A stretch of DNA of 64,000 bases from Pararobbsia alpina (GTDB lineage: Bacteria; Pseudomonadota; Gammaproteobacteria; Burkholderiales; Burkholderiaceae), in the NCBI RefSeq assembly GCF_965118125.1, contig NZ_OZ221287.1, positions 423,238-487,237 of the forward strand, written 5' to 3'. The translations under genes and the position numbers were made by a program. Positions 1 through 19,268 of this stretch are shown piece after piece; positions within the stretch are counted from its first letter, which is position 1; every line of letters begins with the position of its first letter. The notes below the pieces were generated by a model. It was not told where the DNA came from, did not search any database, and saw only the letters and a program-made list of their open reading frames with translations.

Positions 1-34
1 GTACACGTATCAGTGGCTGCGCGGTACGCAGCCG

Positions 35-1318
35 GTGACGGGTGCGACCTCGCGGACGTACGACACACCGGCGACGACGGCTGCCGATAACGGTTCGGCC
101 TATAGCGTCAACGTAACGGGCCCTGACGGCACGGTGTCGGCGTCGAACCCGGCCACGCTGTCGGTCAACAGCACGAAGCTGAACTACACGGTTAAGCCGG
201 GCTTTATCACGGTCGACCTCGCGAACAATACACAGGGCGCCTATACGGACGATCAGGTGTACATCGTGGGCATCGGGCGCGATCCGGTCACGAACGTGTT
301 CTCGTGGCTCAATCCGGATGGCACGCTGACGCCGATGTCGGTCGCCGACAACACCGCGGCCAATCACCTGACGGCGCCGGCGAACGGCCAGAGCTACCCG
401 AACCACGGCTTCTCCCTCGCGCAGTTCAAGTCGATGGTAATTCCGCCGATGGGCGCAGGCCGTCTCTACGTGTCGCTCGGCAGCCCGCTGTATATCGCGG
501 TCAATCAGGATATCAACGGCAATGTCGCCTTTGCAGGCCCGAGTCCGCAGAACACGTCGGACCCGAACGAAAACATCAACTTCGACTGGTACGAGTTTTC
601 GTACGGCGGAAACGGTGTCTGGATCAACACAACGCAAGTCGACGAGTTCGGTTTCCCGCTGACGGAAGACGTCTACGCGCAGGGCGGAACGTGGCACCAG
701 CAGACCGGCATCACGCAGCACCATGCCGACCTGATGGCCGCCTATGCGAAGGAAGTCTCGAGCGCGTTCCAGCCGGTGCCGTCGTCGCCGTATCGAATCA
801 TGTCGCCGGGCCTGAGCACGTTCGCGGCGGGGCAAGCGAACAGCACGTACTTCGACGCGTATATCAACGAAGCCTGGACGTATTACGCGTCGCATGACTT
901 CGTCGTGACGGTCGGTGCGCGCCAGTTCAGCGGTCGTACCCAGGGCGACACGATCGTGTTCAACGAAGTGAACCTGAACAACGGTCAGTTCCAGGGCGAA
1001 GTGGCGAACATCGGCAAGCCGACGACGACGCAAGTGATCCAGGACAGCGGGCCGCTTGCATCGGGCACCGCGGTGGAGCAGGCGATCGAAGCGCAGATCG
1101 GCGCGGCATTCAACCGTCACGTCGTCGAGGATGTGACGAAGTGGAGCACGCCGTCGGCGTGGTACGCGGCTTCACCGTCGAATGAATACGCGCGCTTCTG
1201 GCACGACCACAACGTCAGCGGACTCGCCTACGGCTTCTCGTTCGACGACGTGGACAACCAGAGTTCGACGATTCAGTCGCCGAATCCGGAGCACATCGTG
1301 CTGGGTATTGGATGGTGA
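35..1318 (+). CDS. Secreted glycoside-hydrolase-like protein, candidate GH64-type beta-1,3-glucanase (thaumatin-like fold). The 5' end may lie upstream of the window.
   Basis: 427-aa ORF open to the window start. It has Asn/Thr/Ser-rich carbohydrate-active-enzyme composition, conserved-looking blocks (GRLYVSLGSPLYIA, INFDWYEF, GFPL) reminiscent of GH64 laminaripentaose-producing glucanases, and is followed by a GC-rich hairpin plus T-run. The family assignment is from memory and not verified. Confidence 0.45.
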   Translation: MTGATSRTYDTPATTAADNGSAYSVNVTGPDGTVSASNPATLSVNSTKLNYTVKPGFITVDLANNTQGAYTDDQVYIVGIGRDPVTNVFSWLNPDGTLTPMSVADNTAANHLTAPANGQSYPNHGFSLAQFKSMVIPPMGAGRLYVSLGSPLYIAVNQDINGNVAFAGPSPQNTSDPNENINFDWYEFSYGGNGVWINTTQVDEFGFPLTEDVYAQGGTWHQQTGITQHHADLMAAYAKEVSSAFQPVPSSPYRIMSPGLSTFAAGQANSTYFDAYINEAWTYYASHDFVVTVGARQFSGRTQGDTIVFNEVNLNNGQFQGEVANIGKPTTTQVIQDSGPLASGTAVEQAIEAQIGAAFNRHVVEDVTKWSTPSAWYAASPSNEYARFWHDHNVSGLAYGFSFDDVDNQSSTIQSPNPEHIVLGIGW

Positions 1319-1421
1319 TCGACGTGTGATCACGCCGCGACTGAAGCATGACCGGCGCGGACGCCGCGGTAACCCCGCAGTGTTCGCGCCGGGCTGATTC
1401 ACCGCTGAGGTGGTATTAAAA

Positions 1422-1456
1422 GGGCGCCCGATTTCGCGGCGCCCCCTTTCATTTTT
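1422..1456 (+). terminator. Rho-independent terminator after the glucanase-like gene
   Basis: Hairpin GGGCGCC-cgatttcgc-GGCGCCC followed by CCTTTCATTTTT. Confidence 0.45.
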
Positions 1457-1468
1457 AAGGGTGGTTCG

Positions 1469-1909
1469 ATGCGGTATCGATTGGGTAGGACTCAGCGTCT
1501 GAAGCGAGGTCAACGCGGCTTCACGCTGCTCGAATTGCTCGTGGTGCTCGTGATTATCGGCATGCTCGCGGCGATCGTCGGCCCGCGTTACTTCAATCAG
1601 CTCGGCAAGTCGCAGGCGACCGTCGCGCGCGCACAGATCGACGTGCTCACCAAGGCGATCGACAACTACCGCCTCGACGTCGGACGTTTCCCGACCTCGG
1701 AAGAAGGTCTGCAGGCGCTCGTGGTCAAGCCGGCCACGGCAGACAAGTGGGGCGGCCCGTATCTGAAGAAGGATGTGCCGCTCGATCCGTGGGGTCACCC
1801 CTACGTCTATCAGGTCCCCGGCACCAAGGGTGACTACGCCGTGATCTCGTATGGCCGCGATGGTCAGCCGGGTGGAACGGGCGAAGACGCAGATATCAGC
1901 AGCGAATAA
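1469..1909 (+). CDS. gspG: Type II secretion major pseudopilin GspG
   Basis: Long basic leader, then the prepilin cleavage/methylation motif QRG|FTLLELLVVLVIIG with Glu5. The C-terminal DPWGHPY and GDYAVISYGRDGQPGGTGEDADI calcium-loop signature is typical of GspG. RBS AAGGGTGG precedes the ATG. Confidence 0.85.
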   Translation: MRYRLGRTQRLKRGQRGFTLLELLVVLVIIGMLAAIVGPRYFNQLGKSQATVARAQIDVLTKAIDNYRLDVGRFPTSEEGLQALVVKPATADKWGGPYLKKDVPLDPWGHPYVYQVPGTKGDYAVISYGRDGQPGGTGEDADISSE

Positions 1910-2052
1910 GGCGACGGGAGCGCGCACACGTGTAGCGCAGCGCACGAGACGCTCGAGATCGGGCGATTCGGCGAATGCCACGGGGGTGTGTCTCGCTTCA
2001 CGTTTCGTCACCCGTGCGTCGCGAATATCGACGCCATGTTTAGCCGAGCATC

Positions 2053-3240
2053 ATGCAATACGAAGTCAGAGCGCTCTCGCCGGACAATCAGATCGTCGCC
2101 CTCGTCATCGACGCACAGGACGAGCGTGATGCGCGCGCGCAGGTCGAAGCGCGCGGCCTGCACGCGACCCGGCTCGCACCCGTGCGAAGTTTCAGGCGCG
2201 CAGCCGGCGGGCGCGGCGGTATCTCGCTCGTGTTGTTCAGCCAGGAATTGCTGGCGTTGCTGTTAGCCGGCCTGTCGATCGTCGAAGGCCTTGAAGCGCT
2301 GCTCGAACGCGAAGGCGGCGCACGGCTGCGCGTCGTGCTCGAACGATTGCTTGCCGGCCTGCGCGAAGGCAAGCGTTTCTCGAGCCTGCTCGCCGAGCAG
2401 TCTGATGTGTTTCCGCCGCTGTACGTCGGCATCGTGCGCGCGGCCGAGGGCACCAGCGATCTGCCGCGCGCCCTCTCGCGCTACGTCGATTACCAGGCGC
2501 GCATCGATACGGTCCGCAACAAGCTCGTCAGCGCGGCGATCTACCCGAGCATCCTGCTCGTCGTCGGCGGGGGCGTGTCGGCCTTCCTCATTGCTTTTGT
2601 TGTGCCGCGTTTCGCGACCATCTACGAAGGGACGGGACGTGCGCTGCCCTGGATGTCGCAGGTGCTGCTCGACTGGGGCAAGTTTGCCTCGTCGCATGGA
2701 CTGCCGCTTCTCGCGGGTGCCTTGGGCGCAGGCATTGCCATTACGGCAGCCGTACGCGCGACCATCGCAAAGGTCGGACTCGTGAGTCTGCTCGGCCGCG
2801 TGCCCGTGCTTGGACCGCATTTGCGGATCTACCAGCTTTCGCGGCTCTACCTGACGCTGGGCATGCTGCTCGAAGGCGGCATTCCGATCGTCGCCGCGAT
2901 GGAGACGGCCAGCGGCACCGTGTCGCCCGGGCTACGAGAAGGGCTGATGCGCGCACGCGCTGCCGTGCAATCGGGCGACGCGCTGTCGAGTGCATTCCAA
3001 TCCGAAGGGCTGACCACCCCGATTTCGCTGCGCATGCTGCGCGTGGGCGAGCGCTCCGGCGAAATGGGCACGATGCTCACACAATCGGCCGCGTTTTACG
3101 ACGGCGAGATCAGCCGCTGGATCGACCGCTTCACGCGCATGTTCGAGCCGCTGCTGATGTCGGCGATCGGGCTGATCGTCGGCACGATCGTCGTGCTGCT
3201 CTATATGCCGATCTTCGACCTCGCGGAAAGCCTCTCATGA
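2053..3240 (+). CDS. gspF: Type II secretion inner-membrane platform protein GspF
   Basis: 395 aa with the two-repeat GspF/PilC architecture and a three-TM topology. Its stop overlaps the gspE start (ATGA). Confidence 0.85.
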   Translation: MQYEVRALSPDNQIVALVIDAQDERDARAQVEARGLHATRLAPVRSFRRAAGGRGGISLVLFSQELLALLLAGLSIVEGLEALLEREGGARLRVVLERLLAGLREGKRFSSLLAEQSDVFPPLYVGIVRAAEGTSDLPRALSRYVDYQARIDTVRNKLVSAAIYPSILLVVGGGVSAFLIAFVVPRFATIYEGTGRALPWMSQVLLDWGKFASSHGLPLLAGALGAGIAITAAVRATIAKVGLVSLLGRVPVLGPHLRIYQLSRLYLTLGMLLEGGIPIVAAMETASGTVSPGLREGLMRARAAVQSGDALSSAFQSEGLTTPISLRMLRVGERSGEMGTMLTQSAAFYDGEISRWIDRFTRMFEPLLMSAIGLIVGTIVVLLYMPIFDLAESLS

Positions 3241-5096
3241 CGCAAAGAGAATCGATGGACGCGATCGAAGCGATTGGAACGTTTGAAGCGACCGACGCGA
3301 CCGAAACAATCGAAGTCGTGACACCAACGGCGGCAATCGGCTCGGCGAGCCGGATGAGCGCGACGCAATCCCCTGGGTCGACGGGGCAAATCGGAGCGAT
3401 GGGCGCAACGAGGCCGGCGAGCACCGCGGAGTCGCTTTTCGATATCGAAACGCTTTCGCGTGCCCGCGAGCAAGCCGCGGTGTCGCAGCGGTCGATCATC
3501 GTCGAGCTCGAAGCGCTGACGGGTGTCGAACCCCGGCAAGTGTTGCAATCGCTCGCACAGATGCTTGCCATGCACGTCATCGAGACGTCGGACATGCTGG
3601 CGATGAGTCCGGCATTCGACCGCGTGCCCTTGTCGAGAGCGATGCAGCGGCGGTGCGCGTTGCTGCGTGCAGACGGCGGCAAGCTTGTCGGCGTGACGAC
3701 CAACCCGTTCGATCTCGATCTTCAGACGTGGCTCGGTGCACAGGCGGGTGCCGAGGTCGACGTGCGGCTCGCCTTGCCGTCTGACCTTCAGGCGTACCAC
3801 ACGCGCATGGAAGAGTCGGCGCGCGCGATCGACAGTCTCGTGACCGAAGGCGGCGATGCGCGGGTCGACGGTCGCACGGCACAGGTGCTCTCGTTCGAAA
3901 CGGTCAGCGAGGCAGCGAGCCCCGCGGTCAAGCTCGTGAACTCGACGCTCTACGACGCGCTGAAGGCAGGCGCATCCGATATCCACCTTGAAAGCACCGC
4001 AAGTGGCCTTGCCCTGAAATATCGCGTCGACGGTGTGCTCGATTCGGCCGCGACGATTCATGGCGTTGAAACGGCCGAACAGGTGATCTCGCGTCTCAAG
4101 GTGCTCGCCGAGCTTGATATCGCTGAGCGTCGCGTGCCGCAGGACGGCAGCTTCCGCGTGGCGGCAAGCGGGCGCGACATCGATCTGCGCGTGTCGATCA
4201 TGCCCAGCATTCACGGCGAAGATGCCGTGATCCGGATTCTCGACAAGCGCGCGATGATCGAGGCCTATGGTTCGCTCACGCTCGAAGCACTCGGGTACGA
4301 CAGTGAATCGCTTGTCGCGCTGCGCGCGCTCGCCGAGGAGCCCTACGGCATGCTGCTCGTGACCGGGCCGACGGGCTCCGGCAAGACGACGACCTTATAC
4401 GCGGCATTGACGGAGATTCATAACGGCCGCGACAAGATCATCACGATCGAAGACCCGGTCGAATACCAGCTGCCCGGCATTCTGCAGATCCCCGTCAATG
4501 AGAAGAAAGGCCTGACGTTCGCGCGCGGCCTGCGCTCGATTCTGCGGCATGACCCGGACAAGATCATGGTCGGTGAAATCCGCGATCGCGAAACGGCCGA
4601 GATTGCGGTGCAGTCGGCGCTGACAGGTCACCTTGTGTTGACGACGGTCCACGCGAACAACGTATTCGATGTGTTTGGCCGCTTCGGACATATGGGCATC
4701 GATCCGTATGCGTTTGTGTCGGCCCTCAACGGCATCTGGGCACAGCGACTGTTGCGCGTGAATTGCACGCATTGCTCCGTGCCCTATGTGCCGACCGATG
4801 CCGAACTCGCACGAGTCGGACTCACGCGCGCCGATGTCACGACGTTTAATTTCATGCAGGGGACAGGGTGTGGTGATTGCCGCGGTACCGGGTATCGAGG
4901 CCGGCGCGCGATCGCCGAGATCCTGATTCTCGATGACGAGATTCGCGACATGGTGGTCGAGAAGCAGCCCATCCGCGCGATCAAGGATGCGGCGCGCCGC
5001 AACGGCACGCGGCAACTACGCGAAGTGGCATTGGGCCTGGTCAAGCGCGGCGAGACCACGCTGACCGAAGTCAAGCGGGTGACGCTCAATGCTTAA
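3237..5096 (+). CDS. gspE: Type II secretion / type IV pilus assembly ATPase (GspE/PilB family)
   Basis: T2SSE_N-like N-domain, Walker A GPTGSGKTTT, Asp box, Walker B and His box, plus a C-terminal tetracysteine Zn motif CTHC...CGDC. Confidence 0.85.
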   Translation: MTQRESMDAIEAIGTFEATDATETIEVVTPTAAIGSASRMSATQSPGSTGQIGAMGATRPASTAESLFDIETLSRAREQAAVSQRSIIVELEALTGVEPRQVLQSLAQMLAMHVIETSDMLAMSPAFDRVPLSRAMQRRCALLRADGGKLVGVTTNPFDLDLQTWLGAQAGAEVDVRLALPSDLQAYHTRMEESARAIDSLVTEGGDARVDGRTAQVLSFETVSEAASPAVKLVNSTLYDALKAGASDIHLESTASGLALKYRVDGVLDSAATIHGVETAEQVISRLKVLAELDIAERRVPQDGSFRVAASGRDIDLRVSIMPSIHGEDAVIRILDKRAMIEAYGSLTLEALGYDSESLVALRALAEEPYGMLLVTGPTGSGKTTTLYAALTEIHNGRDKIITIEDPVEYQLPGILQIPVNEKKGLTFARGLRSILRHDPDKIMVGEIRDRETAEIAVQSALTGHLVLTTVHANNVFDVFGRFGHMGIDPYAFVSALNGIWAQRLLRVNCTHCSVPYVPTDAELARVGLTRADVTTFNFMQGTGCGDCRGTGYRGRRAIAEILILDDEIRDMVVEKQPIRAIKDAARRNGTRQLREVALGLVKRGETTLTEVKRVTLNA

Positions 5097-6015
5097 GCGC
5101 CTCGCACGGGCTGTCTCACGGTTCCGGCCACGCGGGCATTGCGTGATCACCGTGTCACGCGAGGGCGTGTCGGCCCACCGTGTGCAGAGCGCACGCCGGC
5201 CCGGACAGGTTGTGGCTTTTCGTGCGCTGGGGCGTCCCGAGGACGCCGAGGCGGATGCGCTGGCTGCGCTGCTCGTGTCGGCGATCGACGAGGTCGACGG
5301 CCGCGGACTGCTGATGCATGTCACCGTGAGCGATGACCTCGCGCGCTATTTCATCGTGACCCCGCCGGCAAATAGCGCTCGCGTGCAGGATTTGCGTGCC
5401 GCTGCCTCGATTCGTTTTCAGACGCTGTACGGCGACTCCGACGCACGCTGGCATCTGGTTGCGGACTGGCAGGCCGCCGAGCCGTTTCTCGCGTGCGCGG
5501 TGCCGCGTCGCGTGTCGGCCGCGCTCGAACAAGCGGTCGCCGCGACGCGTGGGTGCCTGATCTCGGTGACCCCGGAGTTTGCCGGCGCATGGAACCGCGT
5601 GCGCAAGCAGCTCGGTGCGGATGCATGGATCGCAACATTGAACGGCCGCGTGCTGACGCTCGGCCTCGTGGGCGCCGCGCCCAAAGCGCGGCTTGTCAGC
5701 GTGCGCACGCTCGTGTTGCCCGAGCCCGTGCCGCCGCTCGCGTGGCTGCGCGAGCAGATCGCGCGCATGGCGCTGCTCGATAACGTGGTGCCGCCGTCGA
5801 TCCTGTTTGTGCAGGGCGAACCCCTTGAAGCGTGGCAAGGAGGCGGCGCGGCATTCACGGCGTCGGGCCGCGAAGCGATGTCGGTGCGATGGATTCGCTC
5901 GGGTGTCCGCGTGAAATCACGCGACAAGCGCACGGGTTCGCGCGTCGGTTCGACCGCAGGTGCGCTTGCATCACGCTTTGCGTCGCGCATCACGTCGGGC
6001 AGGTCGACGTCATGA
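5089..6015 (+). CDS. PilM/GspL-like cytoplasmic (actin-like) assembly protein
   Basis: 308-aa soluble protein translationally coupled between gspE and a PilN-like gene. The assignment rests on position and a weak fold-level resemblance only. Confidence 0.45.
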   Translation: MLKRLARAVSRFRPRGHCVITVSREGVSAHRVQSARRPGQVVAFRALGRPEDAEADALAALLVSAIDEVDGRGLLMHVTVSDDLARYFIVTPPANSARVQDLRAAASIRFQTLYGDSDARWHLVADWQAAEPFLACAVPRRVSAALEQAVAATRGCLISVTPEFAGAWNRVRKQLGADAWIATLNGRVLTLGLVGAAPKARLVSVRTLVLPEPVPPLAWLREQIARMALLDNVVPPSILFVQGEPLEAWQGGGAAFTASGREAMSVRWIRSGVRVKSRDKRTGSRVGSTAGALASRFASRITSGRSTS

Positions 6016-6563
6016 GACCTCTGTCGCTCGACCTCGCACCGTTCAGCCTGCGACGGGAACTCCATCGCATCCGGCCCGCGGCGAAGCTGTTTGCGCTGAT
6101 CGGCGTCGTGCTGTGCGTGTTGGCGGGCATTCGCATTCACGATCGCCTTCAGCATCTCGAGGCGCTCGATCGCGAGGCATCGCGGCTGACCGCACGCGCC
6201 GAGCGCATGGCGCGCGCATCGACGTCGATCAGGACCGAGCCGATCGATGTGAAACAAGGCGCGGCCGTCAATGCTGCGGTCGGTCGGCTCAATCTTCCAT
6301 GGGACGCGTTGCTCGATGCGATCGAAGCGGCGACACCGTCCCAGATCGCGCTGCTGGCGATCACGCCGGCACCGGGGCGCTCGTCGATTCGCATCGAAGC
6401 CGAATGCAGCGCGAGCAAGGACATAATCGATTATCTCGGCGCGCTCGAAGCGCAGCCCGTGCTGGCCGCCGTCAATCTGGTCAAGCACGAGGTCGTCAAG
6501 GACGGTGTGGAGAGCGTGATCCGGTTCGATATTGAAGTGCAATGGCGGGGGACGGCATCGTGA
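6012..6563 (+). CDS. PilN/GspM-like bitopic inner-membrane assembly protein
   Basis: ATG at 6012 overlaps the upstream stop (ATGA). Short cytoplasmic N-terminus, single TM (LFALIGVVLCVLAGI), a coiled-coil region, then a periplasmic domain. The ORF-track start at 5832 was trimmed. Confidence 0.5.
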   Translation: MRPLSLDLAPFSLRRELHRIRPAAKLFALIGVVLCVLAGIRIHDRLQHLEALDREASRLTARAERMARASTSIRTEPIDVKQGAAVNAAVGRLNLPWDALLDAIEAATPSQIALLAITPAPGRSSIRIEAECSASKDIIDYLGALEAQPVLAAVNLVKHEVVKDGVESVIRFDIEVQWRGTAS

Positions 6564-7441
6564 ACGCCACCTTGTCGAATCTTGGCCGAGGCCTGCTGAG
6601 GATGCGCCTTGCGATTGCCCGGATGGGCATCGGAGCGTCGTTCGCCGCCGTGCTCTTGCTCGGCGCCGCCGGGCTATGGGTCGTGGTGTTGCCTGGCGTG
6701 TCGACGCGGGTCGACGACCAGGCTCACGCGGTGGCGCTTGCGCGCAAGGCGCCTTTGCCGAAGCCCGTCGTATCGGCCCCGGCGTTGGCGTCGCAACGGC
6801 TGAATGCGTTCTATGCAGGGCTTGGCGATGGCGCACACACGGAGCAAATCGTCGGTCGCTTATTCGACGCTGCTTCGGAAGCCGGTGTCGTCCTTGATCG
6901 CGCCGAATACAAGCCCGCGCACGATGTGCCAGGTCGCTTCGATACGTACACCGTGATCTTGCCGTTGAAGGGCGACTACTCGAGCCTGCGACGCTTCAGC
7001 GAAAAAGTGCTCGTCACGATGCCTTATGCGGCACTCGACGATATGCGCTTCAAGCGCAATTCCGCGGGCGACCCGATGGTCGAGGCCAACCTGCGCTTTA
7101 CCGCATTTTTGCGGCCGGTGACGTGGGCGCCGATGGCGGCGGCCGCACCGGCAACCGCACCGGCGACCGCAGCCCCAGCGGCAAGCGACGCAGCAAGTGC
7201 CGCGTCGATCGCAAGTGCATCATCGGCAGCATTGCCCACTGCGTCGTCGGCCGTGGCAGCACCGGTACCCGCAGTGAGCGCTCCCATCAGAGTCGTGGAA
7301 TCCGGATCGTCGTCAGTATCCGTAACGGGGACGATTACCGTTATATCGCACGGCGCGACAGATATTCCGGCGATGCCGACCGTGCCGTTACCACCGTCTA
7401 TGGCACTGGCCCGAGATGCGACGCGCGAGGGACGTCCATGA
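6542..7441 (+). CDS. PilO/GspM-like inner-membrane protein with a Pro/Ala/Ser-rich C-terminal linker
   Basis: N-terminal TM (GASFAAVLLLGAAGLWVVVL), a periplasmic domain, then a low-complexity APATAPATAAPAAS tail. The start may be at 6602. Confidence 0.45.
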   Translation: MAGDGIVNATLSNLGRGLLRMRLAIARMGIGASFAAVLLLGAAGLWVVVLPGVSTRVDDQAHAVALARKAPLPKPVVSAPALASQRLNAFYAGLGDGAHTEQIVGRLFDAASEAGVVLDRAEYKPAHDVPGRFDTYTVILPLKGDYSSLRRFSEKVLVTMPYAALDDMRFKRNSAGDPMVEANLRFTAFLRPVTWAPMAAAAPATAPATAAPAASDAASAASIASASSAALPTASSAVAAPVPAVSAPIRVVESGSSSVSVTGTITVISHGATDIPAMPTVPLPPSMALARDATREGRP

Positions 7442-7971
7442 AGCGCAACCACGTCATCCTTGCCCTGATGTTCGTTTCGACCGCGGCCACTCTGGTGTTC
7501 ACTCGCAAGAACACATCGGACGACATTGTCGAAGCCGCGCCGCGCACGCATGCGGCCGCGCAGCCGTCGCAGTCGTCCCGTTCGAGTCATGGCGGCAGCA
7601 CAGGCACCGTGGGTATCGCTGAAGTGCAAACACGCGCCACACATGACGGTGCCGACGCCGCGCATCGCAAGGTCTTCGGCGCAACCGTGGTCGGCGCGCC
7701 CCTGCCTTCGGCTGCGCCCGCCGGCTCGGATATTCCCCCGCTGCCGACCGGGCCGCTCGTGCCGGATATGCCATTCACGTACATCGGCAAGCAGTCGTCG
7801 GACGGACGGTGGGAGGTCTATCTCTCTCGCGGCGACGACACGCTGATCGTGCGAGAGCAAACGATTATCGATGGGGCGTATCGCGTTGAATCGATCGCTC
7901 CCCCGACCATGACGCTGGTGTATCTGCCAACGAAACTGGTCCAGACCATGGACATCGGCAGTGCCGACTGA
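7438..7971 (+). CDS. PilP/GspC-HR-domain-like periplasmic lipoprotein or secretin-interacting protein
   Basis: Internal ATG at 7438 gives a signal/anchor MKRNHVILALMFVSTAATLV. The C-terminal beta-domain (YIGKQSSDGRWEVYLSRGDDTLIVREQTIIDGAYRVESI) resembles the PilP/GspC HR domain. Confidence 0.4.
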   Translation: MKRNHVILALMFVSTAATLVFTRKNTSDDIVEAAPRTHAAAQPSQSSRSSHGGSTGTVGIAEVQTRATHDGADAAHRKVFGATVVGAPLPSAAPAGSDIPPLPTGPLVPDMPFTYIGKQSSDGRWEVYLSRGDDTLIVREQTIIDGAYRVESIAPPTMTLVYLPTKLVQTMDIGSAD

Positions 7972-10618
7972 CGTGCCAACTGACGTGCTAACAGACACCA
8001 CTGACACGCGCGATACAAGGACAGAACCGTTGCGTACGCCATTCACAACCAACCGCATCCCACGTCGCATCTCACGGCGCATCCTGCGCTATGTGTCGAC
8101 ACTCGCCGCGCCCGCACTGTTGGTCGGCGTGCTCGCGAGCTGCGCCCAGCCCAATGCGTATCGCGATGGCCAGCAAGCCGTCGCCAATGGCAAGGTCGAC
8201 GAAGGGCTCGCGAAACTTCAGGAGGCGAGCCGTCAGGACCCGAAGGACGCGATTTATCGCTCCACGTTTATCGCCGAGCGGGAAAAAGCCCTGGTCACGT
8301 TCGACGAGCAAGGCGACCGTCTTGCCGCGACCGGCTCACGCGATGCCGCTCGAAAGATGTATGAGCGCGCGCTGGCCATCGAGCCCAACAACGAGCGCGC
8401 CATTGCCGGCATTGCGTCACTCGAGAATGCCGCACGTCTCGACGCGCTGATGAGTCGCGCCGAGGCGTTCGCCGCGCACCAGCAACCCGATGAAGCGCGT
8501 CGGGTGCTCAATACGGTGCTAACAGAGGCGCCTGCCAACCGACGCGCGCTCGCGCTCAAACGCAGGCTCGATATGGACTCGGGCCCAGCGCGTGTCGACG
8601 CCGCGCTGGCCGCCGCCTATCGCAAGCCCATTCGTATCGACTTCAGGGATGCGCCGCTCAAGCAGATCTTCGAAGTCATTTCGCATAGCTCAGGACTGAA
8701 CTTCCTGTTCGACAAGGACGTCAAGACCGACACGCGGACCTCGATCTACCTGAAGAACAGCACGATCGACGCGACTGTGCGCTACGTGCTGGCGACCAAT
8801 CAGCTCGCGCAGCAGGTGCTCGACGAGAACACCGTCCTGATCTATCCGGCGACACCCGCGAAGCAAAAGGACTATCAGGAGCTTGCCGTACGCACGTTCT
8901 TCCTGTCGTACACCGACGCGAAGACCATCGCCAATACGCTCAAGACCATCGTCAAATCGCACGATGTGGTGGCCGACGAAAAGCTCAACGTCGTGATCGT
9001 GCGCGACACACCCGACGCGATCAAGATGGCCGAAAAACTCGTGGCGCTCGAAGACGTGCCCGAGCCCGAAGTCATGCTCGAGGTCGAAGTGCTCGAAGTC
9101 AGCCGGACCAAGCTGCAGAACCTCGGTATCGCGTGGCCGGGCTCGATTTCGGTCACACCGCTTCCAGTCGGCACGTCGATCACCTCGCTGGCATCCGGCG
9201 CAACGAGCGGGGGCACGACCGGCAGCACGACGCTCGGCACGACATCGACCGGCTCGGGCACCTCGCCTGCGCTGACATTGTCGGACCTCGCGCATCAGAC
9301 CTCCCGCACCCTTGGCCTCTCCCAGTTGCAGGCGACGGCCAACGCGAACCTGCAGGATTCGGATGCGAAGCTGCTGACTAACCCGCGCATTCGCGTGCAC
9401 AACCACGAGAAAGCCAAGATCCTGATCGGTGAGCGCGTACCGAACATCACCTCGACGGCGACTTCGACGGGCTTTGTATCGCAGTCCGTGAACTACCTTG
9501 ATATCGGTCTGACGTTGCAGGTCGAGCCGACCATCTTTCTCGACGACACGGTGGGCATCAAGGTCTCGCTTGAAGTCAGCAGTTTGCTGAATACGGTCGC
9601 GGGGACATCGGGCACGACGGCCTATGAAATCGGCACGCGTACCGCGAGCACGGTGCTGCAATTGAAGAACGGTGAGACGGATGTGCTTGCCGGCCTGATC
9701 GACAGCGAAGAGCGCACGTCGGGCAACAAGCTGCCGGGCCTCGGCAACTTGCCGGTGCTCGGGCGTTTGTTCGGCGCGACGACCGACGACGACAAGGATA
9801 CGGAAATCGTGCTGTCGATCACGCCTCACCTCGTGCGCAACATTCAGCGTCCGGATGCCAACCTCGCGTATTTCACGTCGGGCACCGAGTCGAACATGCA
9901 CAGCATGGTTCAGTCGAACGGTTTGCCGGCGGGGTCGACGCCCGGTGTTGCACCTGCTGCGGCGCCATCAAGCAATAGCGCCCATCCTGGCTCGAACGGT
10001 GCGCAGAACGGACTCAACAACGGATTCGGCTCGAATGGCGGTTTGTCGAACAACGGCCTGAACAGTGCGTTTGGCGATAACAGTTCCTACGGATCGAATG
10101 GATCGAACGGCTCAAACAGCTCGTATGGGGGCGGCACAGGGACGAGCTATGCCGGAGACTCAGCGCCCTACGTGGGCGCCGCGGCGGGGGATCCCGGCAC
10201 CGCGCAGATGACCATTGAAGGTCCGCCTTCGGCGAAGATCGGCGACACCGTGTCGGTCGCGATGACCATGCAAGCGGATCAGCCTGTGTCGAGCGTGTCG
10301 TCGACCGTGACTTACGACAGCACCAAGCTGCAATTCATCGGTGCGACCGAGGGGGATTTCCTTCGACAGGGCGGAGCGCCGACGAGCTTCTCGAATCGCG
10401 TCGCACAAGGCGGTCACCTGATTCTCAGCGACACGGCCCAGGGCGGATCGGGCGCGGCATCGCAGGGCACATTTGCCGTGCTGAACTTCAAGGCCGTGGC
10501 GGCCGCATCGCAGACATCGATTCAGGTGCAGCCGGGATCGGTGATCGGCGTAACAGGAGCACCGATCACGATGACGCCGCCATCGGCATACACATTTGGC
10601 GTGGCGGGCTCGCCGTGA
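7961..10618 (+). CDS. gspD: Secretin (GspD/PilQ family) with a fused N-terminal TPR lipoprotein module and a C-terminal cohesin-like domain
   Basis: Lipobox LLVGVLASC, and an alternative GTG start at 8093 would give a normal-length signal peptide. TPR-like helical repeats follow, then N-domains, a secretin core ([21 protein letters not shown]...[11 protein letters not shown]...ITPHLV), a Gly/Ser/Asn-rich linker, and a roughly 130-aa beta-rich C-terminal domain. Confidence 0.8.
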
Positions 10619-11097
10619 TGGTTCGGCGCCGGCAGAGCGGATTCACGCTGATCGAGCTGCTCGTGACGCTGGCCATCCTTGGCGTGCTCGCCTCGATGAC
10701 CGTGCCCGTTGCGCAGGTGATGCGACAGCGCGAACGCGAGCAGGAGCTGCGTGAGGCCCTGCACGAGATCCGTCATGCAATCGATGCGTACAAGGTCGCG
10801 AGCAAGGAGGGGCATATCCCGGTAGAAGCCGGCGCAAGCGGATATCCGCCCAAGCTAGAGGTGCTCGTCGATGGCGTGCCGGATCAAAGCGACCCCAAGG
10901 GGCACAAGCTGTACTTCCTTCGCCGCATCCCGCGCGATCCGATGAATAACGATCCGGACCTCAGTGCTGCAGAGACGTGGGGCAAGCGATGCTACGCGAG
11001 CGAGGCCGACGACCCGCAAGAGGGCGACGACGTGTACGACGTTTACACCACGTCGAAAAACGTCGGGCTCAACGGCATTCCTTATCGGAACTGGTGA
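10615..11097 (+). CDS. Minor pseudopilin (GspH/GspJ-like)
   Basis: MMVRRRQSG|[18 protein letters not shown] prepilin motif with Glu5. Translationally coupled on both sides. Confidence 0.7.
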
Positions 11098-11624
11098 TGC
11101 GGATCAGAGAACGTTTGAGCCGGACGATGGACGGATTCCTGCGAAGCGGAGGCCGAAGCACGCGGATCGGCGAGCGTGCATGGCGAACGCGAGTTGTCGA
11201 GCGGATCACGGCTCCTTCGGCAGCGCGTGAGGTACTTCGGAAGGATCGACCGGGCCGCGCACGCGGATTCACGTTGATCGAACTCCTGCTCGTGCTGGCC
11301 ATTGTGTCGCTGCTTCTGACGCTGGCGTTGCCGCAGTACTTCCATTCGATCGACGCTTCGAAGGAGAAGGTGCTCGCCGAGAATCTGCTCGTGACGCGCG
11401 ATGCGATCGACAAGTTCTATGGTGACGTGGGGCGCTATCCCGACTCGCTCGATGAGCTCGTCGACAAGCACTACCTGCGGGCGTTGCCGGTCGACCCGAT
11501 CACGGACAGCACGACAACGTGGATCATTGTCGCGCCTGAAGAACAATTCCCGGGCAAGGTCTACGACATCAAGAGCGGCGCCGAAGGCTCAACGCTCGAC
11601 GGGCAGGCGTACGGGGCGCTATGA
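11097..11624 (+). CDS. Minor pseudopilin (GspI-like) with an unusually long N-terminal leader
   Basis: ARG|FTLIELLLVLAIVSLLLT prepilin motif. The only in-frame starts (ATG 11097, TTG 11112, ATG 11127) give 48-58-aa leaders. Confidence 0.6.
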   Translation: MRIRERLSRTMDGFLRSGGRSTRIGERAWRTRVVERITAPSAAREVLRKDRPGRARGFTLIELLLVLAIVSLLLTLALPQYFHSIDASKEKVLAENLLVTRDAIDKFYGDVGRYPDSLDELVDKHYLRALPVDPITDSTTTWIIVAPEEQFPGKVYDIKSGAEGSTLDGQAYGAL

Positions 11625-12466
11625 CTGCGGTCAAATACGCAAGGCGATCGCGTCCGCGGCAAGGCGGCTACGCCTATCTCGCCCTGTTGATCCTGATCGC
11701 GATCATCGGCGTGGCTGCTGCTGCGACGGCTGAGCTCGGCGATGTGTATCAACGCCGGATGGCCGAGAAGGAGTTGCTCTTTGTAGGCGGTGAGTTCCAG
11801 CGCGCCCTGACAAGCTACTCGGCACAGACACCACTCGGGCAGCCGACACAACCGCGCACGCTCGATGACCTCGTGCATGACCCACGCTATCCGAATCCGG
11901 TGCATCACCTGCGAAAGGTCTACGCCGATCCGATGACAGGCAAGGCTGACTGGGTCCTCGTCAAGTCACCGGATGGGCAGACGATCGTTGGCATCCATAG
12001 TGCATCGAAGGCGCATCCGATCCAGGTCGCACAGTTCCCCGATGAGTTTCAAGGCTTCGAAGACCAGCGCAGCTACACGCAATGGATCTTTGTCGCTCGT
12101 CTCACTCAAACCCCCGGACAAAGAACTGCGATCGCGCCACTCACGATCTATCAACCGAACAACGGCAACGGCAACAGCAATGGCGCATCGAACAGCGCGC
12201 CTCAAGGCGGAGGCACCGCCTCGTCTGACAGCACGTTTGGATCCGGTAACGCAGGATCGACGGGAGGCTCGAGCGGCTTCGGTGGAAACGGGACCACGGG
12301 ATATGGCGGGACCGGCGGCTCGGGCTTTGGCCAGAGCGGACCGAATTCATTGGGTGGGGGAAACGGCACGACAGGTTTCGGCGCAGCCGGTAGTTCGTCT
12401 TTCGGAGGATCCGGGGCAAACGGCTTTGGCGGAAACGGCGCTACGAACAGTAGTGATGCGCCTTGA
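11621..12466 (+). CDS. GspK-like minor pseudopilin lacking Glu5, with a Gly/Asn/Ser-rich C-terminal tail
   Basis: RQGGYAYLALLILIAIIGVAAA hydrophobic N-terminus without the conserved Glu. It is the last gene of the cluster and is followed by a terminator. Confidence 0.45.
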   Translation: MTAVKYARRSRPRQGGYAYLALLILIAIIGVAAAATAELGDVYQRRMAEKELLFVGGEFQRALTSYSAQTPLGQPTQPRTLDDLVHDPRYPNPVHHLRKVYADPMTGKADWVLVKSPDGQTIVGIHSASKAHPIQVAQFPDEFQGFEDQRSYTQWIFVARLTQTPGQRTAIAPLTIYQPNNGNGNSNGASNSAPQGGGTASSDSTFGSGNAGSTGGSSGFGGNGTTGYGGTGGSGFGQSGPNSLGGGNGTTGFGAAGSSSFGGSGANGFGGNGATNSSDAP

Positions 12467-12595
12467 TTCGAATCTCAACGCTCGCATTTCGACCCTCGCA
12501 TCTGTACGCGAAACCTATGTTTTTATCGGTTTCGTGTAGAGATAGATCGCGCGTCGGATCTGATCGGCCGTGCCTTGCAATCCGCAGCACCAAAG

Positions 12596-12626
12596 CAAAA
12601 AGCCCAACCGAAGTTGGGCTTTTCAC
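12596..12626 (-). terminator. Bidirectional intrinsic terminator between the T2SS-like cluster and tRNA-Phe
   Basis: AAAAAGCCCAAC-cgaa-GTTGGGCTTTT hairpin flanked by A/T runs on both strands. Confidence 0.5.
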
Positions 12627-12637
12627 ATGATTCTGAA

Positions 12638-12713
12638 TGGTGGCCTGGGGCGGAATCGAACCACCGACACGCGGATTTTCAATCCGCTGCTCTACCAACT
12701 GAGCTACCGGGCC
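12638..12713 (-). tRNA. tRNA-Phe (GAA)
   Basis: The reverse complement gives GGCCCGGTAGCTCAGTTGGTAGAGCAGCGGATTGAAAATCCGC...GGTTCGATTCCGCCCCAGGCCACCA. It is a cloverleaf with anticodon GAA, T-loop TTCGATT and 3' CCA, with one C-A mismatch at acceptor pair 5-68. Confidence 0.85.
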
Positions 12714-12775
12714 ACGCAGAAGCGAAAGTATAGCAGTGGTCTTGTCCGCGTTTCAACCCTTCTGCCAAACTTTTT

Positions 12776-13447
12776 TTACTCGCTCTTGTTCTTGCCCAAA
12801 TCCACGCCGAGTTGCTTGAGCTTGCGATACAGGTGAGTCCGCTCGAGGCCGGTCTTTTCGGCCACGCGCGTCATGCTGCCGTTTTCGCGCGCGAGGTGGT
12901 ACTCGAAGTACGCGCGCTCGAACGCATCACGTGCGTCGCGCAACGGAATATCGAACGAGATCGCGCCCGCGTTGGACGCCGGTGCAGCCGGCGTGGCAGG
13001 CACGCCGTCGATACCCGCCGGGGGCTCGATGCCACCCGGAGCACCAACCGGTGCCGCGGCTGCCGGCATGACCGGCGGCATCGCACCGCGTTCGAGTCCC
13101 TGCTCAACGGCTTTGAGCAGCTTCTGCAGCGTGATCGGCTTCTCGAGAAAGTTGAGTGCGCCGATCTTGGTCGCTTCAACGGCCGTATCGATCGTCGCGT
13201 GCCCCGACATCATGATCACGGGCATCTTCAACTGGCCTTGAGCGGCCCATTCCTTCAGCAAGGACACGCCGTCCGTGTCAGGCATCCAGATATCGAGCAA
13301 TACGAGATCCGGCGTCTGCTGTTCGAAGTAGTCACGCGCAGCCTGCGCGTTCTCGGCGACGTCGACCGCATGGCCCTCGTCGCTGAGGATCTCCGACAGC
13401 AACTCGCGGATGCCCATTTCATCGTCTACCACGAGGATGGTTGCCAT
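12776..13447 (-). CDS. Two-component response regulator, REC plus Fis-type HTH (NtrX-like, no AAA+ domain)
   Basis: MATILVVDDE...LLDIWMPDTDG receiver domain, an Ala/Pro-rich linker, and a C-terminal Fis-family HTH. It is paired with the upstream kinase. Confidence 0.8.
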   Translation of the reverse strand: MATILVVDDEMGIRELLSEILSDEGHAVDVAENAQAARDYFEQQTPDLVLLDIWMPDTDGVSLLKEWAAQGQLKMPVIMMSGHATIDTAVEATKIGALNFLEKPITLQKLLKAVEQGLERGAMPPVMPAAAAPVGAPGGIEPPAGIDGVPATPAAPASNAGAISFDIPLRDARDAFERAYFEYHLARENGSMTRVAEKTGLERTHLYRKLKQLGVDLGKNKSE

Positions 13448-15826
13448 TTACTCTACCTTTGTATGCGCTGTTGCTTTTGTTTGCGGCGTCGCTGTGTCTT
13501 CCGCCAGCTCTAGAAACAGGATCGAAACCTGCGCACCGGCGATCGATCCATCGCCTGCCTTGGTCCGGTTGCGAATGTCGATTCGCGCACCGTGCTCATC
13601 GACAATCTTCTTGACCGTCGCAAGCCCAAGGCCCGTTCCCTTCGCCTTCGTCGTTACGTAAGGCTCGAATGCCCGGGTCAGGATCCTTGCGGGGAAGCCC
13701 GAGCCATTGTCGGAGACCGATAGCCGTACCGACTGCCGGCTATGTCCATGTGCATCGGGGTCTCCGTATTCTACTGTTCGCGTTTCGAGCAACACACGCG
13801 GCACCGCAACTTCAGCTACGGCATCCAGTGCGTTCTGCAGCAGGTTGTGGATCACCTGGCGCAATTGCGTCGCATCGCCGCGAATGATCGGCAATGGCAT
13901 CAGCTCGATCTTGAGCGGACCCTTGCCATCTTCGATGCCGTACAACGTGAGCACTTCCGCAACGAGATCGTTGAGCTGCAGATTTTGCAGCACCGCAGGC
14001 GGTGTGCGCGCATATTCGCGGAAGTCATCAACCATGCGCTTCATCGCAGCGACCTGATTCACGATCGTCGTCGCACCGCGTCGCAACACCTCTGCATCTG
14101 GCGCTGCGAGCTTGTCGGTCAGCTTCATCTGCAGTCGCTCGGCCGACAACTGAATCGGTGTCAGGGGATTCTTGATCTCGTGAGCCAGCCGGCGGGCGAC
14201 TTCACCCCATGCCACCGAGCGCTGTGCCGAGATCACGTCAGAGATGTCGTCGAACACAATCACGTAGCCATCCGTCGCTGCAACGTCTTCATGCTCGCCG
14301 CCGTTGACATGCGTCGTTGCGCGAAGCAGCGGTGCGCCGCGCACGAGCAAGGTCAGCGGATCGGTTTCGCCGGGCACGGGCACTTCCAGCTGCTGTTGCC
14401 AATGACCGCGACGCTCACCCATCTCCGGACCTGCGGTCGCCTGGCTGTCCGCGAACGCCTTGCGCACCATCGCGCCGAGTTCCTTGAGCACCACGATCCG
14501 GTCGAGCGGCTGATTGAGCTCGCCCTCGAACGGCTGACGGAAGATGCGTTCGGCACCGGCATTCGCCGTCGTCAAACGGAACTGTCGGTCAAAGACGAAC
14601 ACACCCGCGGTCAGATTGGCCAGGATGCTCTCGAGATAGGCCTTCGATTGTTCGAGTGCCGTTCGATTGCGCTCGACCGCGACTCGCGCTTCGGACAGCT
14701 GTCGCGTCATGGCGTTGAACGATTGCGTCAGGAAGCCAAGCTCGTCGTTCGAATTGATTTCGCGCTTCGGTGTGTAGTCGCCGCGTGCGATCTCCTTGGT
14801 CCCTTCAGCGAGCAGGAACAACGGCCGTGCCAGCTGATTACCCAACGCAAGTGCGAGCAGCATCGCGATGAACGTCGCGAGGAACAGCGCGAGCGTCAGC
14901 GTGCCGATGTACATCTTGCGCAACCCCGTTCGGCCCAGCGCTTTTTCCGAGTACTCGCGGTATGCACGCTGAACGGCTTCGGCGTTCTGGGCAAGCGAGG
15001 GCTGAACCGGTTGGGTCACCTGCAGGAAGCGGTCTTCCGTCCGGAGCCCTGTGGTCAGTCCGCCCGGTATTCGCACGACAACGCGTAGCTGAAGCGGCGC
15101 GCTTTTCGTGGGTGTCGCTTGTTGGGCCTGGCTTGCCGAGAGCGAGGTGTCGGTGTCGAGCTCGCCCTCGACCGCGGCATAGCCGCGGCCGCGCGCCTGC
15201 TGGAGCATCAGGTTCGACGGCATGTCCGGCATCAGTGTCGCGAAGTTCGACGACGCTTGCGCAATGACGTTGCGCTTGTCGTCGAGAATCGTCGCGTCGT
15301 GAACACCGTACTGGTCGCGCAGGCGCAGCAGCGTGAGCGTCGACTGATCGTTGTCGTTGCCGAGCTGATCGGCCATCAGATGGGCCTTGTTCTGCAAGTC
15401 GGCGAGCGCGTTGTCCAGCATGCCGCGACCCAGGTTCAGCCCGGACTCGAGCGCGGTTTCCACATTGATGTCGAACCACGACTCGATGCTTCGCGACACG
15501 AATTGCAGCGAGACCAGGTAGATGATGCCGCCCGGCAGCACGCCGACAAGCGCAAAGAAGATCGCCAGCTTCGCAAGCAATCGCGTGCCGAAGCGACCCT
15601 GGCGCAGCCGCGCATAGATGATCCAGACAAGGCCGCCGATGATCAGCAGGAACACAATGGCGATCGCGACATTCGCCGCATACAGCCACGAGTAATAGCG
15701 ATCGAAGAAGTCCGTGTTCGCGCTCGCGAGCGCAAGCAGCACCAGCAACAGCAGCGCCGTGACGGCGACCGTCGACAGCAGCAGGCGGGTCAGGAAGCTC
15801 TTGAGGCTCGCGTTACTGTTTGCCAT
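13448..15826 (-). CDS. Sensor histidine kinase (NtrY-like: multi-TM N-terminus, HAMP, PAS, HisKA, HATPase)
   Basis: Several N-terminal TM helices, a HAMP region, H-box HEIKNPLTPIQLSAERL, and N/G1/G2 boxes (DNGSGF, GTGLGLA). Confidence 0.8.
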   Translation of the reverse strand: MANSNASLKSFLTRLLLSTVAVTALLLLVLLALASANTDFFDRYYSWLYAANVAIAIVFLLIIGGLVWIIYARLRQGRFGTRLLAKLAIFFALVGVLPGGIIYLVSLQFVSRSIESWFDINVETALESGLNLGRGMLDNALADLQNKAHLMADQLGNDNDQSTLTLLRLRDQYGVHDATILDDKRNVIAQASSNFATLMPDMPSNLMLQQARGRGYAAVEGELDTDTSLSASQAQQATPTKSAPLQLRVVVRIPGGLTTGLRTEDRFLQVTQPVQPSLAQNAEAVQRAYREYSEKALGRTGLRKMYIGTLTLALFLATFIAMLLALALGNQLARPLFLLAEGTKEIARGDYTPKREINSNDELGFLTQSFNAMTRQLSEARVAVERNRTALEQSKAYLESILANLTAGVFVFDRQFRLTTANAGAERIFRQPFEGELNQPLDRIVVLKELGAMVRKAFADSQATAGPEMGERRGHWQQQLEVPVPGETDPLTLLVRGAPLLRATTHVNGGEHEDVAATDGYVIVFDDISDVISAQRSVAWGEVARRLAHEIKNPLTPIQLSAERLQMKLTDKLAAPDAEVLRRGATTIVNQVAAMKRMVDDFREYARTPPAVLQNLQLNDLVAEVLTLYGIEDGKGPLKIELMPLPIIRGDATQLRQVIHNLLQNALDAVAEVAVPRVLLETRTVEYGDPDAHGHSRQSVRLSVSDNGSGFPARILTRAFEPYVTTKAKGTGLGLATVKKIVDEHGARIDIRNRTKAGDGSIAGAQVSILFLELAEDTATPQTKATAHTKVE

Positions 15827-17806: not shown

Positions 17807-18184
17807 CCGGTAGAGCTCGCGGACAGGCCATCAACCCGGATTCAGGGTGGCCACGCGCGGCAATATGCAAAAAGCCGGCGCCCCGGATGGGCCGCCGGCA
17901 GGTTGGGTATTGTAGCGTGCGCGGTTGAAGCCAGAGGTCCTTGCCGGCGACGGCGTGGCGCACGGCTTATCAGGCAACGCACATAGCGTCGAATCCTCTG
18001 CCCATGGCCGGAAGATTTCACCTTGAGCTCGCGTCAAGCCGCGATGTCGACGGCCTGCGCGTAGGGCTCTGAGGTCGTCGCGGTCCGCGGGCGCCATTGC
18101 CGTCAGGTCATTTCCATCTGCCGCGAGATACGTTCCTCCGTGCTCGCGTGACAAGCGGCCCGATCGATGGCCTTTCAGTAGGGC

Positions 18185-19176: not shown

Positions 19177-19268
<92 letters not shown>

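Follow-up and report, generated by a model that had tools for sequence, protein, structure and literature searches.

A stretch of 64,000 nucleotides of Pararobbsia alpina DNA (assembly GCF_965118125.1, contig NZ_OZ221287.1, positions 423,238 to 487,237 of the forward strand), referred to here as the window, contains a cluster of eleven genes that we read, with moderate confidence, as encoding a complete machine of the T2SS (type II secretion system) kind within the type IV filaments, whose most likely cargo is the product of a giant glycosidase gene directly upstream. The cluster belongs to a family that has been seen in sequenced genomes for about two decades as the Ralstonia 'unorthodox T2SS' or 'secretion system X', with four of its eleven genes annotated as hypothetical. 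Added here are classes for these four hypothetical proteins (PilM/GspL, PilN, GspM/PilO and GspC/PilP), a liposecretin-TPR-cohesin architecture for the secretin, and a hypothesis about the cargo. The recurrent linkage of the cluster to giant, signal-peptide-bearing cargo candidates is newly described.

Organization and distribution of the cluster

All eleven open reading frames (ORFs) lie on the forward strand between positions 1469 and 12466 (Table 1), and each was found at the coordinates given in an initial annotation of this DNA, whose description of a co-oriented, mostly overlapping and non-canonical T2SS-like cluster is confirmed. Nine of the ten gene junctions overlap, by 1-22 nt each, and the sole gap is that of 143 nt between gspG and F. 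A strong hairpin with flanking A- and U-runs, the likely operon terminator, lies between the last gene and a convergent tRNA-Phe gene; its region has a folding z-score of -4.57, with 0 of 200 shuffled sequences folding equally well. At the other end, a hairpin between the glycosidase gene and gspG has a predicted energy of -21.1 kcal/mol and a z-score of only -0.97, which is statistically not unusual, and a consensus scan around gspG called neither a promoter nor a terminator, this hairpin included. We found in the cluster no retraction ATPase and no adhesin-type pilin, and no recognisable GspH/I/J/K tip set, GspN or GspO.

We note that four of the cluster proteins carry low-complexity extensions: the secretin in a linker (9839-10210), orf11 in its tail (12101-12466), orf6 in its tail (7140-7441) and E at its N-terminus (3237-3430). 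These are Gly/Ser/Asn-rich in the secretin and orf11 and Ala/Ser/Pro-rich in orf6; their length differs greatly among species, and they are short or absent in many relatives.

A profile of orf4 retrieved 1614 representatives of 50%-identity clusters at E <= 1e-3, and a genome scan with the same profile identified 29 loci in Paraburkholderia, Trinickia, Caballeronia and Burkholderia as well as in the Oxalobacteraceae (Undibacterium, Paucimonas and Collimonas). All 11 window proteins map in the same order to every one of the 29 loci, where the available flank suffices, so the cluster is not a chance arrangement. The order is also retained in further loci (numbered L030, L031, L035-L037, L039 and L040 in our collection). 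Beyond the 29 loci, the module is present on an assembly contig of the European Nucleotide Archive that is possibly a metagenome-assembled genome (L035), on two metagenome contigs, on Paraburkholderia megaplasmids including that of P. largidicola, and on a conjugative plasmid of B. ambifaria; a homologue of ps1, the first of the accessory pseudopilins, is encoded on 110 Ralstonia megaplasmids.

When the window proteins were compared by tblastn with a Ralstonia megaplasmid locus (L036), 11 of 11 were colinear, with E-values from 1e-4 (orf4) to 0; the values for the remaining middle proteins are 1e-18 (orf5), 8e-11 (orf6) and 9e-20 (orf7). In the annotated Ralstonia locus an RHS protein comes first, followed by gspG, F, E, the four hypothetical genes, 'PilQ' and, last, three pseudopilins. 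Both orf4 and orf7 have 100% identical counterparts assigned to P. alpina; for orf7, such a protein is named 'Secretion system X translation initiation factor', and we take this name to correspond to the SEED/RAST subsystem 'Predicted secretion system X'. Among the papers searched, the term 'secretion system X' was found in one genome announcement only. The resemblance to the Ralstonia unorthodox T2SS proposed in the initial annotation is borne out both by the colinearity and by the published description, in which seven core genes are accompanied by four hypothetical ones between gspE and gspD and an orthodox T2SS of 12 genes is present alongside the system (Li et al. 2016, PMC5080846). Presence varies by strain, and a cluster of this kind together with an adjacent rhsB is missing from strains non-pathogenic on tomato (Cho et al. 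2019, PMC6428702). A 2026 Ralstonia preprint using randomly barcoded transposon sequencing (RB-TnSeq) covers the orthodox T2SS only.

Whole-module paralogues, two or three per genome, are present in Burkholderia sp. Ac-20365 (L013/L014), in Paraburkholderia rhizosphaerae (L006/L022) and in plasmid records. The B. ambifaria copy (L031) occupies region 1-15093 of the conjugative 216-kb plasmid NZ_CP086300, along with genes for an RHS protein, an IPT/TIG protein, a cytochrome c peroxidase and a lytic transglycosylase. Carriage on this conjugative plasmid indicates that the system is horizontally mobile.

The major pseudopilin, platform protein and ATPase

The first gene of the cluster encodes a protein that scores 174 bits against the curated GspG equivalog model TIGR01710, passing its cutoff of 88.85, and matches Pfam T2SSG at E = 3.3e-40. 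It has a basic leader of 17 amino acids (aa), the cleavage motif G/FTLLE (the slash marks the cleavage site) and a mature chain of 129 aa, and the GspG type previously attributed to the major subunit can therefore stand.

The F and E proteins are more divergent. F matches Pfam T2SSF at E = 1.8e-45 and scores 257 bits with the GspF model, below the equivalog cutoff of 424, compared with 183 for the PilC models. E contains T2SSE (398.9 bits) and MshEN (35.6 bits) Pfam domains, the latter as an MshEN-type N-domain, and is preceded by a poorly conserved extension of about 65 aa. With 485.6 bits for the GspE model (cutoff 630.25) and 460 bits for the PilB model (cutoff 676), it falls below both cutoffs, and among PDB sequences GspE and PilB score 340 and 335 bits; as judged by these scores, E is equidistant from GspE and PilB. 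Control by cyclic di-GMP through the MshEN domain was considered, and inspection of E by eye revealed no N-terminal RLG-type motif.

The four middle proteins and the alignment platform

The four unannotated genes between E and the secretin gene appear to supply a full alignment subcomplex. No Pfam or NCBIfam family matches orf4, and none of relevance was matched in 35 relatives either, the PilM Pfam family included. Its AlphaFold2 model (pLDDT 85) has no transmembrane segment, and a Foldseek search of the PDB returned at the top, with equal significance, PilM (5eox, E = 7e-10; 2ych) and the PulL, EpsL and GspL cytoplasmic domains (5tkw, 1yf5, 4pht), followed by FtsA. The target-normalised TM-score is 0.56-0.63 for the cytoplasmic GspL domains versus 0.33-0.47 for PilM. 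Going by the predicted structure, orf4 is a free-standing cytoplasmic actin-like protein like PilM, with the compact size of cytoplasmic GspL.

Its neighbour orf5 narrowly passes the Pfam PilN threshold (24.2 bits versus 22.8), and within its family PilN is matched in 22 of 23 members and GspL_C in two. The protein has one transmembrane segment, a coiled coil and a ferredoxin-like periplasmic domain, and near its N-terminus a conserved motif, L-x-[LI]-D-[LF]-A-P, that resembles the INLLP peptide through which PilN binds PilM (structures 2ych and 5eou). Sequence-profile searches with orf5 and orf6 against PDB sequences gave nothing meaningful. A number of metagenomic relatives of orf4 (P0162, P0167, P0183, P0185, P0204, P0205, P0245 and P0270) are 447-468 aa long, and the long relatives, where checked (the P0298 contig included), are orf4-orf5 fusions with a PilN domain, that is, GspL-like single chains. 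Split and fused forms of orf4 and orf5 both exist within one family.

Among 20 relatives of orf6, nine match T2SSM_b (best E = 4.6e-5) and one T2SSM, all with weak E-values, and three match PilO. The protein is bitopic, ends in a variable Ala/Ser/Pro-rich tail and takes the place of pilO in the gene order; the matches of its relatives and this position together suggest a GspM_b/PilO-type protein. In the last of the four, orf7, a transmembrane helix at the N-terminus is joined through a disordered linker of about 80 aa to a predicted HR domain of GspC/PilP type, which is six-stranded and C-terminal; a PDZ domain and a lipobox are both absent. A Pfam scan of orf7 relatives gave no relevant family, and the classes of orf4 and orf7 were assigned by structure prediction only.

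The initial annotation had held that the platform partners resemble PilMNOP rather than GspC/L/M. The gene order pilM-N-O-P-Q supports this, but the opposition is too sharp: orf4 also matches cytoplasmic GspL and is closer to it in size, the relatives of orf6 match T2SSM_b more often than PilO, and the orf4-orf5 fusions are GspL-like. AlphaFold modelling with Foldseek, put forward there as one way to settle the matter, returned PilM and cytoplasmic GspL alike for orf4, and structure prediction gave a GspC/PilP-type HR domain for orf7. The platform is neither purely PilMNOP nor canonical GspC/L/M; its order and split layout are like those of PilMNOP-PilQ, and its single proteins are no closer to the type IVa pilus (T4aP) versions than to those of GspL, GspM and GspC. 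With the four hypothetical proteins assigned to platform classes, the machine would be complete and can be viewed as an evolutionary intermediate between the T2SS and T4aP layouts.

The secretin

The secretin is composed, in order, of a TPR module, an STN/N0 domain, a single Secretin_N (N1) domain, the secretin domain proper, a Gly/Ser/Asn-rich linker and a C-terminal cohesin domain. A lipobox, LASC, has its cysteine at residue 61 (nt 8141), and in most loci the corresponding sequence is L[AGST][AG]C followed by AAQxAYRDGQ; because the lipobox is conserved in most relatives, the secretin is predicted to be a lipoprotein with a fused TPR module. It scores 173 bits with the PilQ model and 164 bits with that of GspD (TIGR02517, cutoff 351), both far below the cutoffs. 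The same architecture is present in Ralstonia, B. ambifaria and Trinickia, and the cohesin domain is missing only in Undibacterium (L026).

Accessory pseudopilins and the last gene

Only three accessory pseudopilins are encoded in the cluster. The first, ps1, has the motif G/FTLIE, a mature chain of 151 aa and an N_methyl match at E = 1.2e-10, and scores 51 bits with the GspG model, below the cutoff; it is the best-conserved accessory protein of the family, with 59-88% identity among loci and 70% to Ralstonia, and appears distantly GspG-like in sequence. In ps2 the same motif is encoded at nt 11265-11282, the mature chain has 118 aa, the N_methyl match is at E = 5e-7 and the GspG model gives 46 bits. 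Neither protein reaches the cutoff of the gspH, gspI or gspJ model, and the best match of each is the weak one to GspG.

The third, orf11, stands in last position at every locus and had been called GspK-like in the initial annotation. This short pseudopilin-like protein is not a member of the GspK family, since neither Pfam nor NCBIfam has a family that matches it, and its sole likeness to GspK is the missing Glu5, which is replaced by Ala (G/YAYLA). The N-terminal hydrophobic segment reads G/FTY[LI]GLL in relatives, and a conserved core of about 145 aa is followed by a Gly/Ser-rich tail of about 120 aa.

Candidate cargos and neighbours of the module

Functionally the unit probably does not begin at gspG: the ORF upstream of it is the 3' part of a gene, cut by the window start, for a giant and putatively secreted glycosidase, and this gene accompanies the cluster. 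The visible part encodes an Ig-like stretch and a GH64 beta-1,3-glucanase domain (Pfam Glyco_hydro_64, 257.7 bits), and Logan contigs add about 0.8 kb upstream, so that the P. alpina gene encodes at least 701 aa. A giant glycosidase with a Sec signal lies directly upstream of gspG and co-oriented with it in 17 of the 19 Burkholderiaceae loci with enough upstream flank, the two exceptions being Trinickia loci (L023 and L025). Complete homologues of 1865-1961 aa contain GH2 modules, Ig I-set repeats and three discoidin (F5/8-type-C) domains; in longer ones, of more than 2171 aa and running off the 10-kb flank, Ig and discoidin repeats are more numerous and a GH64 domain is added at the C-terminus. 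Each of the two copies of the system in Burkholderia sp. Ac-20365 has its own giant glycosidase. A GH64 protein search returned mostly fragments, and the giant Paraburkholderia proteins were not among them.

A more distant subfamily, comprising Ralstonia, B. ambifaria, Paucimonas, a metagenome-assembled genome of the Oxalobacteraceae and two metagenome contigs, has large RHS proteins as neighbours. Such proteins adjoin the module at L027, L028, L031, L036 and L039 and on the P0298 contig, often joined by a lytic transglycosylase, an IPT/TIG protein and a cytochrome c peroxidase. The adjacent rhs gene, a Ralstonia trait, is not present at the window, where the glycosidase gene takes its place. 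Substrates of a T2SS require Sec-type signals, which RHS proteins delivered by a type VI secretion system (T6SS) are not known to have. Sec-type signal peptides begin the glycosidases and the Ralstonia RHS protein, and the RHS-like proteins of the Oxalobacteraceae look similar.

Other neighbours were observed at single loci. In Collimonas (L029) the module again has a cytochrome c peroxidase gene upstream; at two distant loci, a Laminin_G_3 protein carrying a PEP-CTERM sorting signal is encoded directly downstream of it (L035, 16694-17449) and an Imm11 polymorphic-toxin immunity protein upstream of it (L040, 4038-4697).

A dedicated substrate had been considered probable for the cluster in the initial annotation, with none named. 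Such a substrate is plausible, the candidate being the upstream GH2...GH64 glycosidase, which going by its conserved position is the most likely cargo in the P. alpina genome.

Proposed mechanism and alternative explanations

Starting from the presence, conservation and structural class of the individual parts, we propose the following wiring. A prepilin peptidase encoded elsewhere would process the four pseudopilins. orf4 would bind the N-terminal LDLAP peptide of orf5 and dock the ATPase at the membrane, as PilM does with PilN; orf5 and orf6 would span the periplasm; and the HR domain of orf7 would touch N0 of the secretin, as for GspC and PilP. The secretin may pilot itself to the outer membrane by means of its N-terminal lipid anchor and TPR module, and ATP-driven growth of a short G pseudopilus would then push the folded, Sec-exported periplasmic cargo through it. 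If the glycosidase is exported in this manner, it would be expected to degrade fungal or other beta-glucan cell walls.

A number of points weigh against this proposal. Literature searches found no functional study of the family and no experiment linking it to the secretion of any protein, only genome-description papers. No prepilin peptidase (GspO) is encoded in the cluster or at any related locus, and orf6 of the window matches no family. Neither the T2SS nor the T4aP curated equivalog cutoffs are reached by E, F or the secretin, so that the choice of secretion rather than a pilus draws mainly on the GspG-type subunit. As to the cargo, it is assigned from gene adjacency alone, and the very large size of the candidates (200-300 kDa, or an RHS shell) equals or exceeds that of the T2SS substrates known so far. 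No dockerin, the possible partner of the cohesin domain, was detected in the glycosidase or RHS candidate cargos, and a cohesin-dockerin pairing with the cargo was dropped for this reason. There is no obvious giant neighbour at L023, L025, L026, L035 and L040, and the terminator-like hairpin between the glycosidase gene and gspG makes co-transcription uncertain. These last two observations, together with the usual scattering of classical T2SS cargo genes, would suit a functional exporter that has its substrates encoded elsewhere and does not carry the neighbouring glycosidase, the two lying side by side because of shared regulation or a shared genomic island. We think this unlikely, given that the adjacency is found at 17 of the 19 Burkholderiaceae loci with enough flank and, in one genome, at both paralogous copies, and given that a different giant signal-peptide protein takes the same place in other lineages.

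A surface pilus machine, T4aP- or MSHA-like, that serves adhesion (to fungal hyphae or plant surfaces, for example) with the giant neighbours using other routes, would account for the platform order pilM-N-O-P-Q, for a PilQ-like secretin with N0 and a single N1 that is matched best by the PilQ model (173 bits), for the MshEN domain in E, for the lytic transglycosylase alongside the RHS-linked subfamily, and for the name 'type IV pilus secretin PilQ' given to the Ralstonia orthologue by the Prokaryotic Genome Annotation Pipeline (PGAP). It is nonetheless improbable, in that the major subunit, with its compact GspG form of 129 aa, lies above the GspG equivalog cutoff; a PilT-type ATPase, a PilY1-type adhesin and a large variable pilin are absent at all loci; F and E score higher with the GspF and GspE models than with those of PilC and PilB; and the tight recurrent linkage to giant signal-peptide proteins would be hard to explain. 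More doubtful still is that the cluster is simply the organism's main general T2SS, rearranged and handling many substrates. Every essential functional class but the peptidase is encoded in the cluster, and no canonical gspC-N operon is present among the ORFs scanned in the 64-kb window, both of which speak for such an explanation. Against it, the Ralstonia homologue coexists with an orthodox 12-gene T2SS and is strain-variable (PMC5080846, PMC6428702), several genomes have two or three copies (L013/L014, L006/L022 and plasmid records), one copy is on a conjugative plasmid, the P. largidicola label gspG_4 implies other gspG genes in that genome, and the components score below the canonical equivalog cutoffs.

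Secretion of the adjacent glycosidase by a T2SS-type machine thus remains the reading that we prefer. A wider version of it, which we offer tentatively and hold to be possible rather than probable, is that 'System X' is a distinct and widespread T2SS-like branch in which one machine exports one cargo, the cargos being exceptionally large Sec-dependent proteins, with the cohesin domain on the liposecretin acting in cargo docking or surface retention. In Pararobbsia, Paraburkholderia, Trinickia, Caballeronia and Burkholderia these cargos may be multi-domain glycosidases of 200-300 kDa, and in Ralstonia, B. ambifaria and the Oxalobacteraceae they may be RHS/YD-shell toxins with a signal peptide; RHS proteins would then have a two-step export route independent of the T6SS. 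The cargo hypothesis, if true, would account for the exit of some very large Sec-dependent enzymes and RHS toxins from the cell, and would bear on fungal antagonism by soil Burkholderiaceae and on strain-variable traits in Ralstonia.

Other features of the window

No canonical gsp genes were found among the scanned ORFs of the window, which are core-chromosome genes: a two-component system, rsmB, fmt, def, dprA, topA, an RtcR/RlaP RNA-repair cluster, an ABC transporter ATPase and mnmE. A core housekeeping block (rsmB, an M48 peptidase, LysE, fmt, def, dprA and topA) occupies 16403-27778, with mnmE further on (52526-54088), and its nearness suggests a conserved chromosomal location for the secretion cluster, which may be close to the origin. 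We considered but do not claim a genomic island at tRNA-Phe, as the GC content of 0.62-0.65 is that of the surroundings and no integrase was seen.

Just past tRNA-Phe, at 12776-15826 on the reverse strand, a 223-aa response regulator and a 792-aa HAMP histidine kinase are encoded, and further out lies a DUF4390 gene; the two-component genes are probably unrelated to the module, because they are not conserved beside it in other genomes. An RNA-repair-type cluster (30309-34865) adjoins tRNA-Lys(CTT) at 30309-30384. Between 60001 and 63001 the AT skew is strongly negative (-0.26), and here an 845-aa coiled-coil SMC/Rad50-like ORF (60128-62665, reverse strand) is overlapped by a 945-aa ORF on the forward strand; either may be real.

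Table 1. Positions of the secretion cluster, its flanking elements and other features in the 64,000-nt window
Feature	Position	Strand	Remarks
3' end of giant, putatively secreted glycosidase gene	2..1318	+	cut by window start; frame open from base 2; candidate cargo
GC-rich hairpin then U-rich tract	1422..1456	+	between glycosidase gene and gspG; terminator- or attenuator-like, weak
gspG	1469..1909	+	major pseudopilin, GspG type
F	2053..3240	+	inner-membrane platform protein, GspF/PilC family
E	3237..5096	+	assembly ATPase, GspE/PilB family
orf4	5089..6015	+	actin-like, predicted PilM/cytoplasmic GspL equivalent
orf5	6012..6563	+	bitopic, PilN-type
orf6	6542..7441	+	bitopic, putative GspM/PilO-type; gene callers favour start 6602
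orf7	7438..7971	+	transmembrane-anchored, predicted GspC/PilP-type HR domain
secretin	7961..10618	+	predicted lipoprotein; true start probably between 7961 and 8093
secretin, TPR	8306-8569		Pfam
secretin, STN/N0	8696-8851		Pfam
secretin, Secretin_N	8888-9067		Pfam
secretin, secretin domain	9353-9838		Pfam
secretin, cohesin	10211-10531		Pfam
ps1 (pseudopilin 1)	10615..11097	+	N_methyl motif
ps2 (pseudopilin 2)	11097..11624	+	N_methyl motif; start codon uncertain
orf11	11621..12466	+	pseudopilin-like, last gene
Likely operon terminator	12598..12623		strong hairpin with flanking A- and U-runs, between orf11 and convergent tRNA-Phe
tRNA-Phe	12638-12713	-	convergent with cluster
RlaP	30522-31361	-	RNA-repair-type cluster
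Band7/SPFH protein	31431-32708	-	RNA-repair-type cluster
RtcR, sigma-54 activator	33270-34865	+	RNA-repair-type cluster

Comparison with known systems

With the canonical T2SS (e.g. Pul, Eps, Xcp and the Burkholderia Gsp operon) the cluster shares a GspG above the curated cutoff, homologues of F, E and the secretin, and a platform whose parts would be structurally equivalent to GspL (orf4 plus orf5), GspM (orf6) and the HR domain of GspC (orf7); there is likewise no retraction ATPase, and the candidate substrates have a Sec signal peptide. It differs in that the function of GspL is split over orf4, which has no transmembrane segment, and orf5 with its PilN domain, and in that the GspC equivalent has no PDZ or coiled-coil domain. 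The secretin has one N1 domain in place of N1-N3 and has gained the lipobox, TPR and cohesin. G, F and E come first in the gene order, no GspH/I/J/K, GspN or GspO is recognisable in the cluster, and E, F and D fall below the equivalog cutoffs.

The likeness to the PilMNOPQ set of T4aP lies in the apparent order M-N-O-P-secretin, with a predicted HR/PilP-fold protein directly before the secretin, in a cytoplasmic actin-like protein separate from a PilN-type protein with an INLLP-resembling N-terminal motif, and in a secretin with N0 and a single N1, whose TPR module recalls the PilF/PilW/Tgl pilotins, here fused to the secretin. However, orf4 falls short of PilM by about 100 aa and is not matched by the PilM Pfam family, a transmembrane helix anchors orf7, which is not a lipoprotein, and there are no AMIN domains. 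The cluster has no PilT/PilU, PilA-type pilin or PilY1, a single ATPase, and a GspG-type major subunit.

The Hxc system of Pseudomonas aeruginosa, to which the cluster had also been likened, is reportedly a second, dedicated T2SS with a narrow substrate encoded adjacent to it and a self-piloting liposecretin, HxcQ. It has ordinary GspC/L/M and GspH-K homologues, and its secretin is not known to carry TPR or cohesin. The likeness holds for the lipoprotein secretin only, here predicted from the lipobox, and would not extend to the platform.

The closest counterpart is the Ralstonia unorthodox T2SS. A co-oriented giant GH2...GH64 glycosidase gene is the neighbour in P. alpina and a divergent RHS protein gene in Ralstonia, the protein identities range from about 29% (orf4) to 70% (ps1), and orf6, orf11 and the secretin of the window have long low-complexity extensions. 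The two systems nevertheless have the same 11 genes in the same order, with seven recognisable core genes and four hypothetical ones between gspE and the secretin gene, and a predicted lipoprotein secretin of the same make-up, from TPR, STN, Secretin_N and Secretin to the cohesin at the C-terminus.

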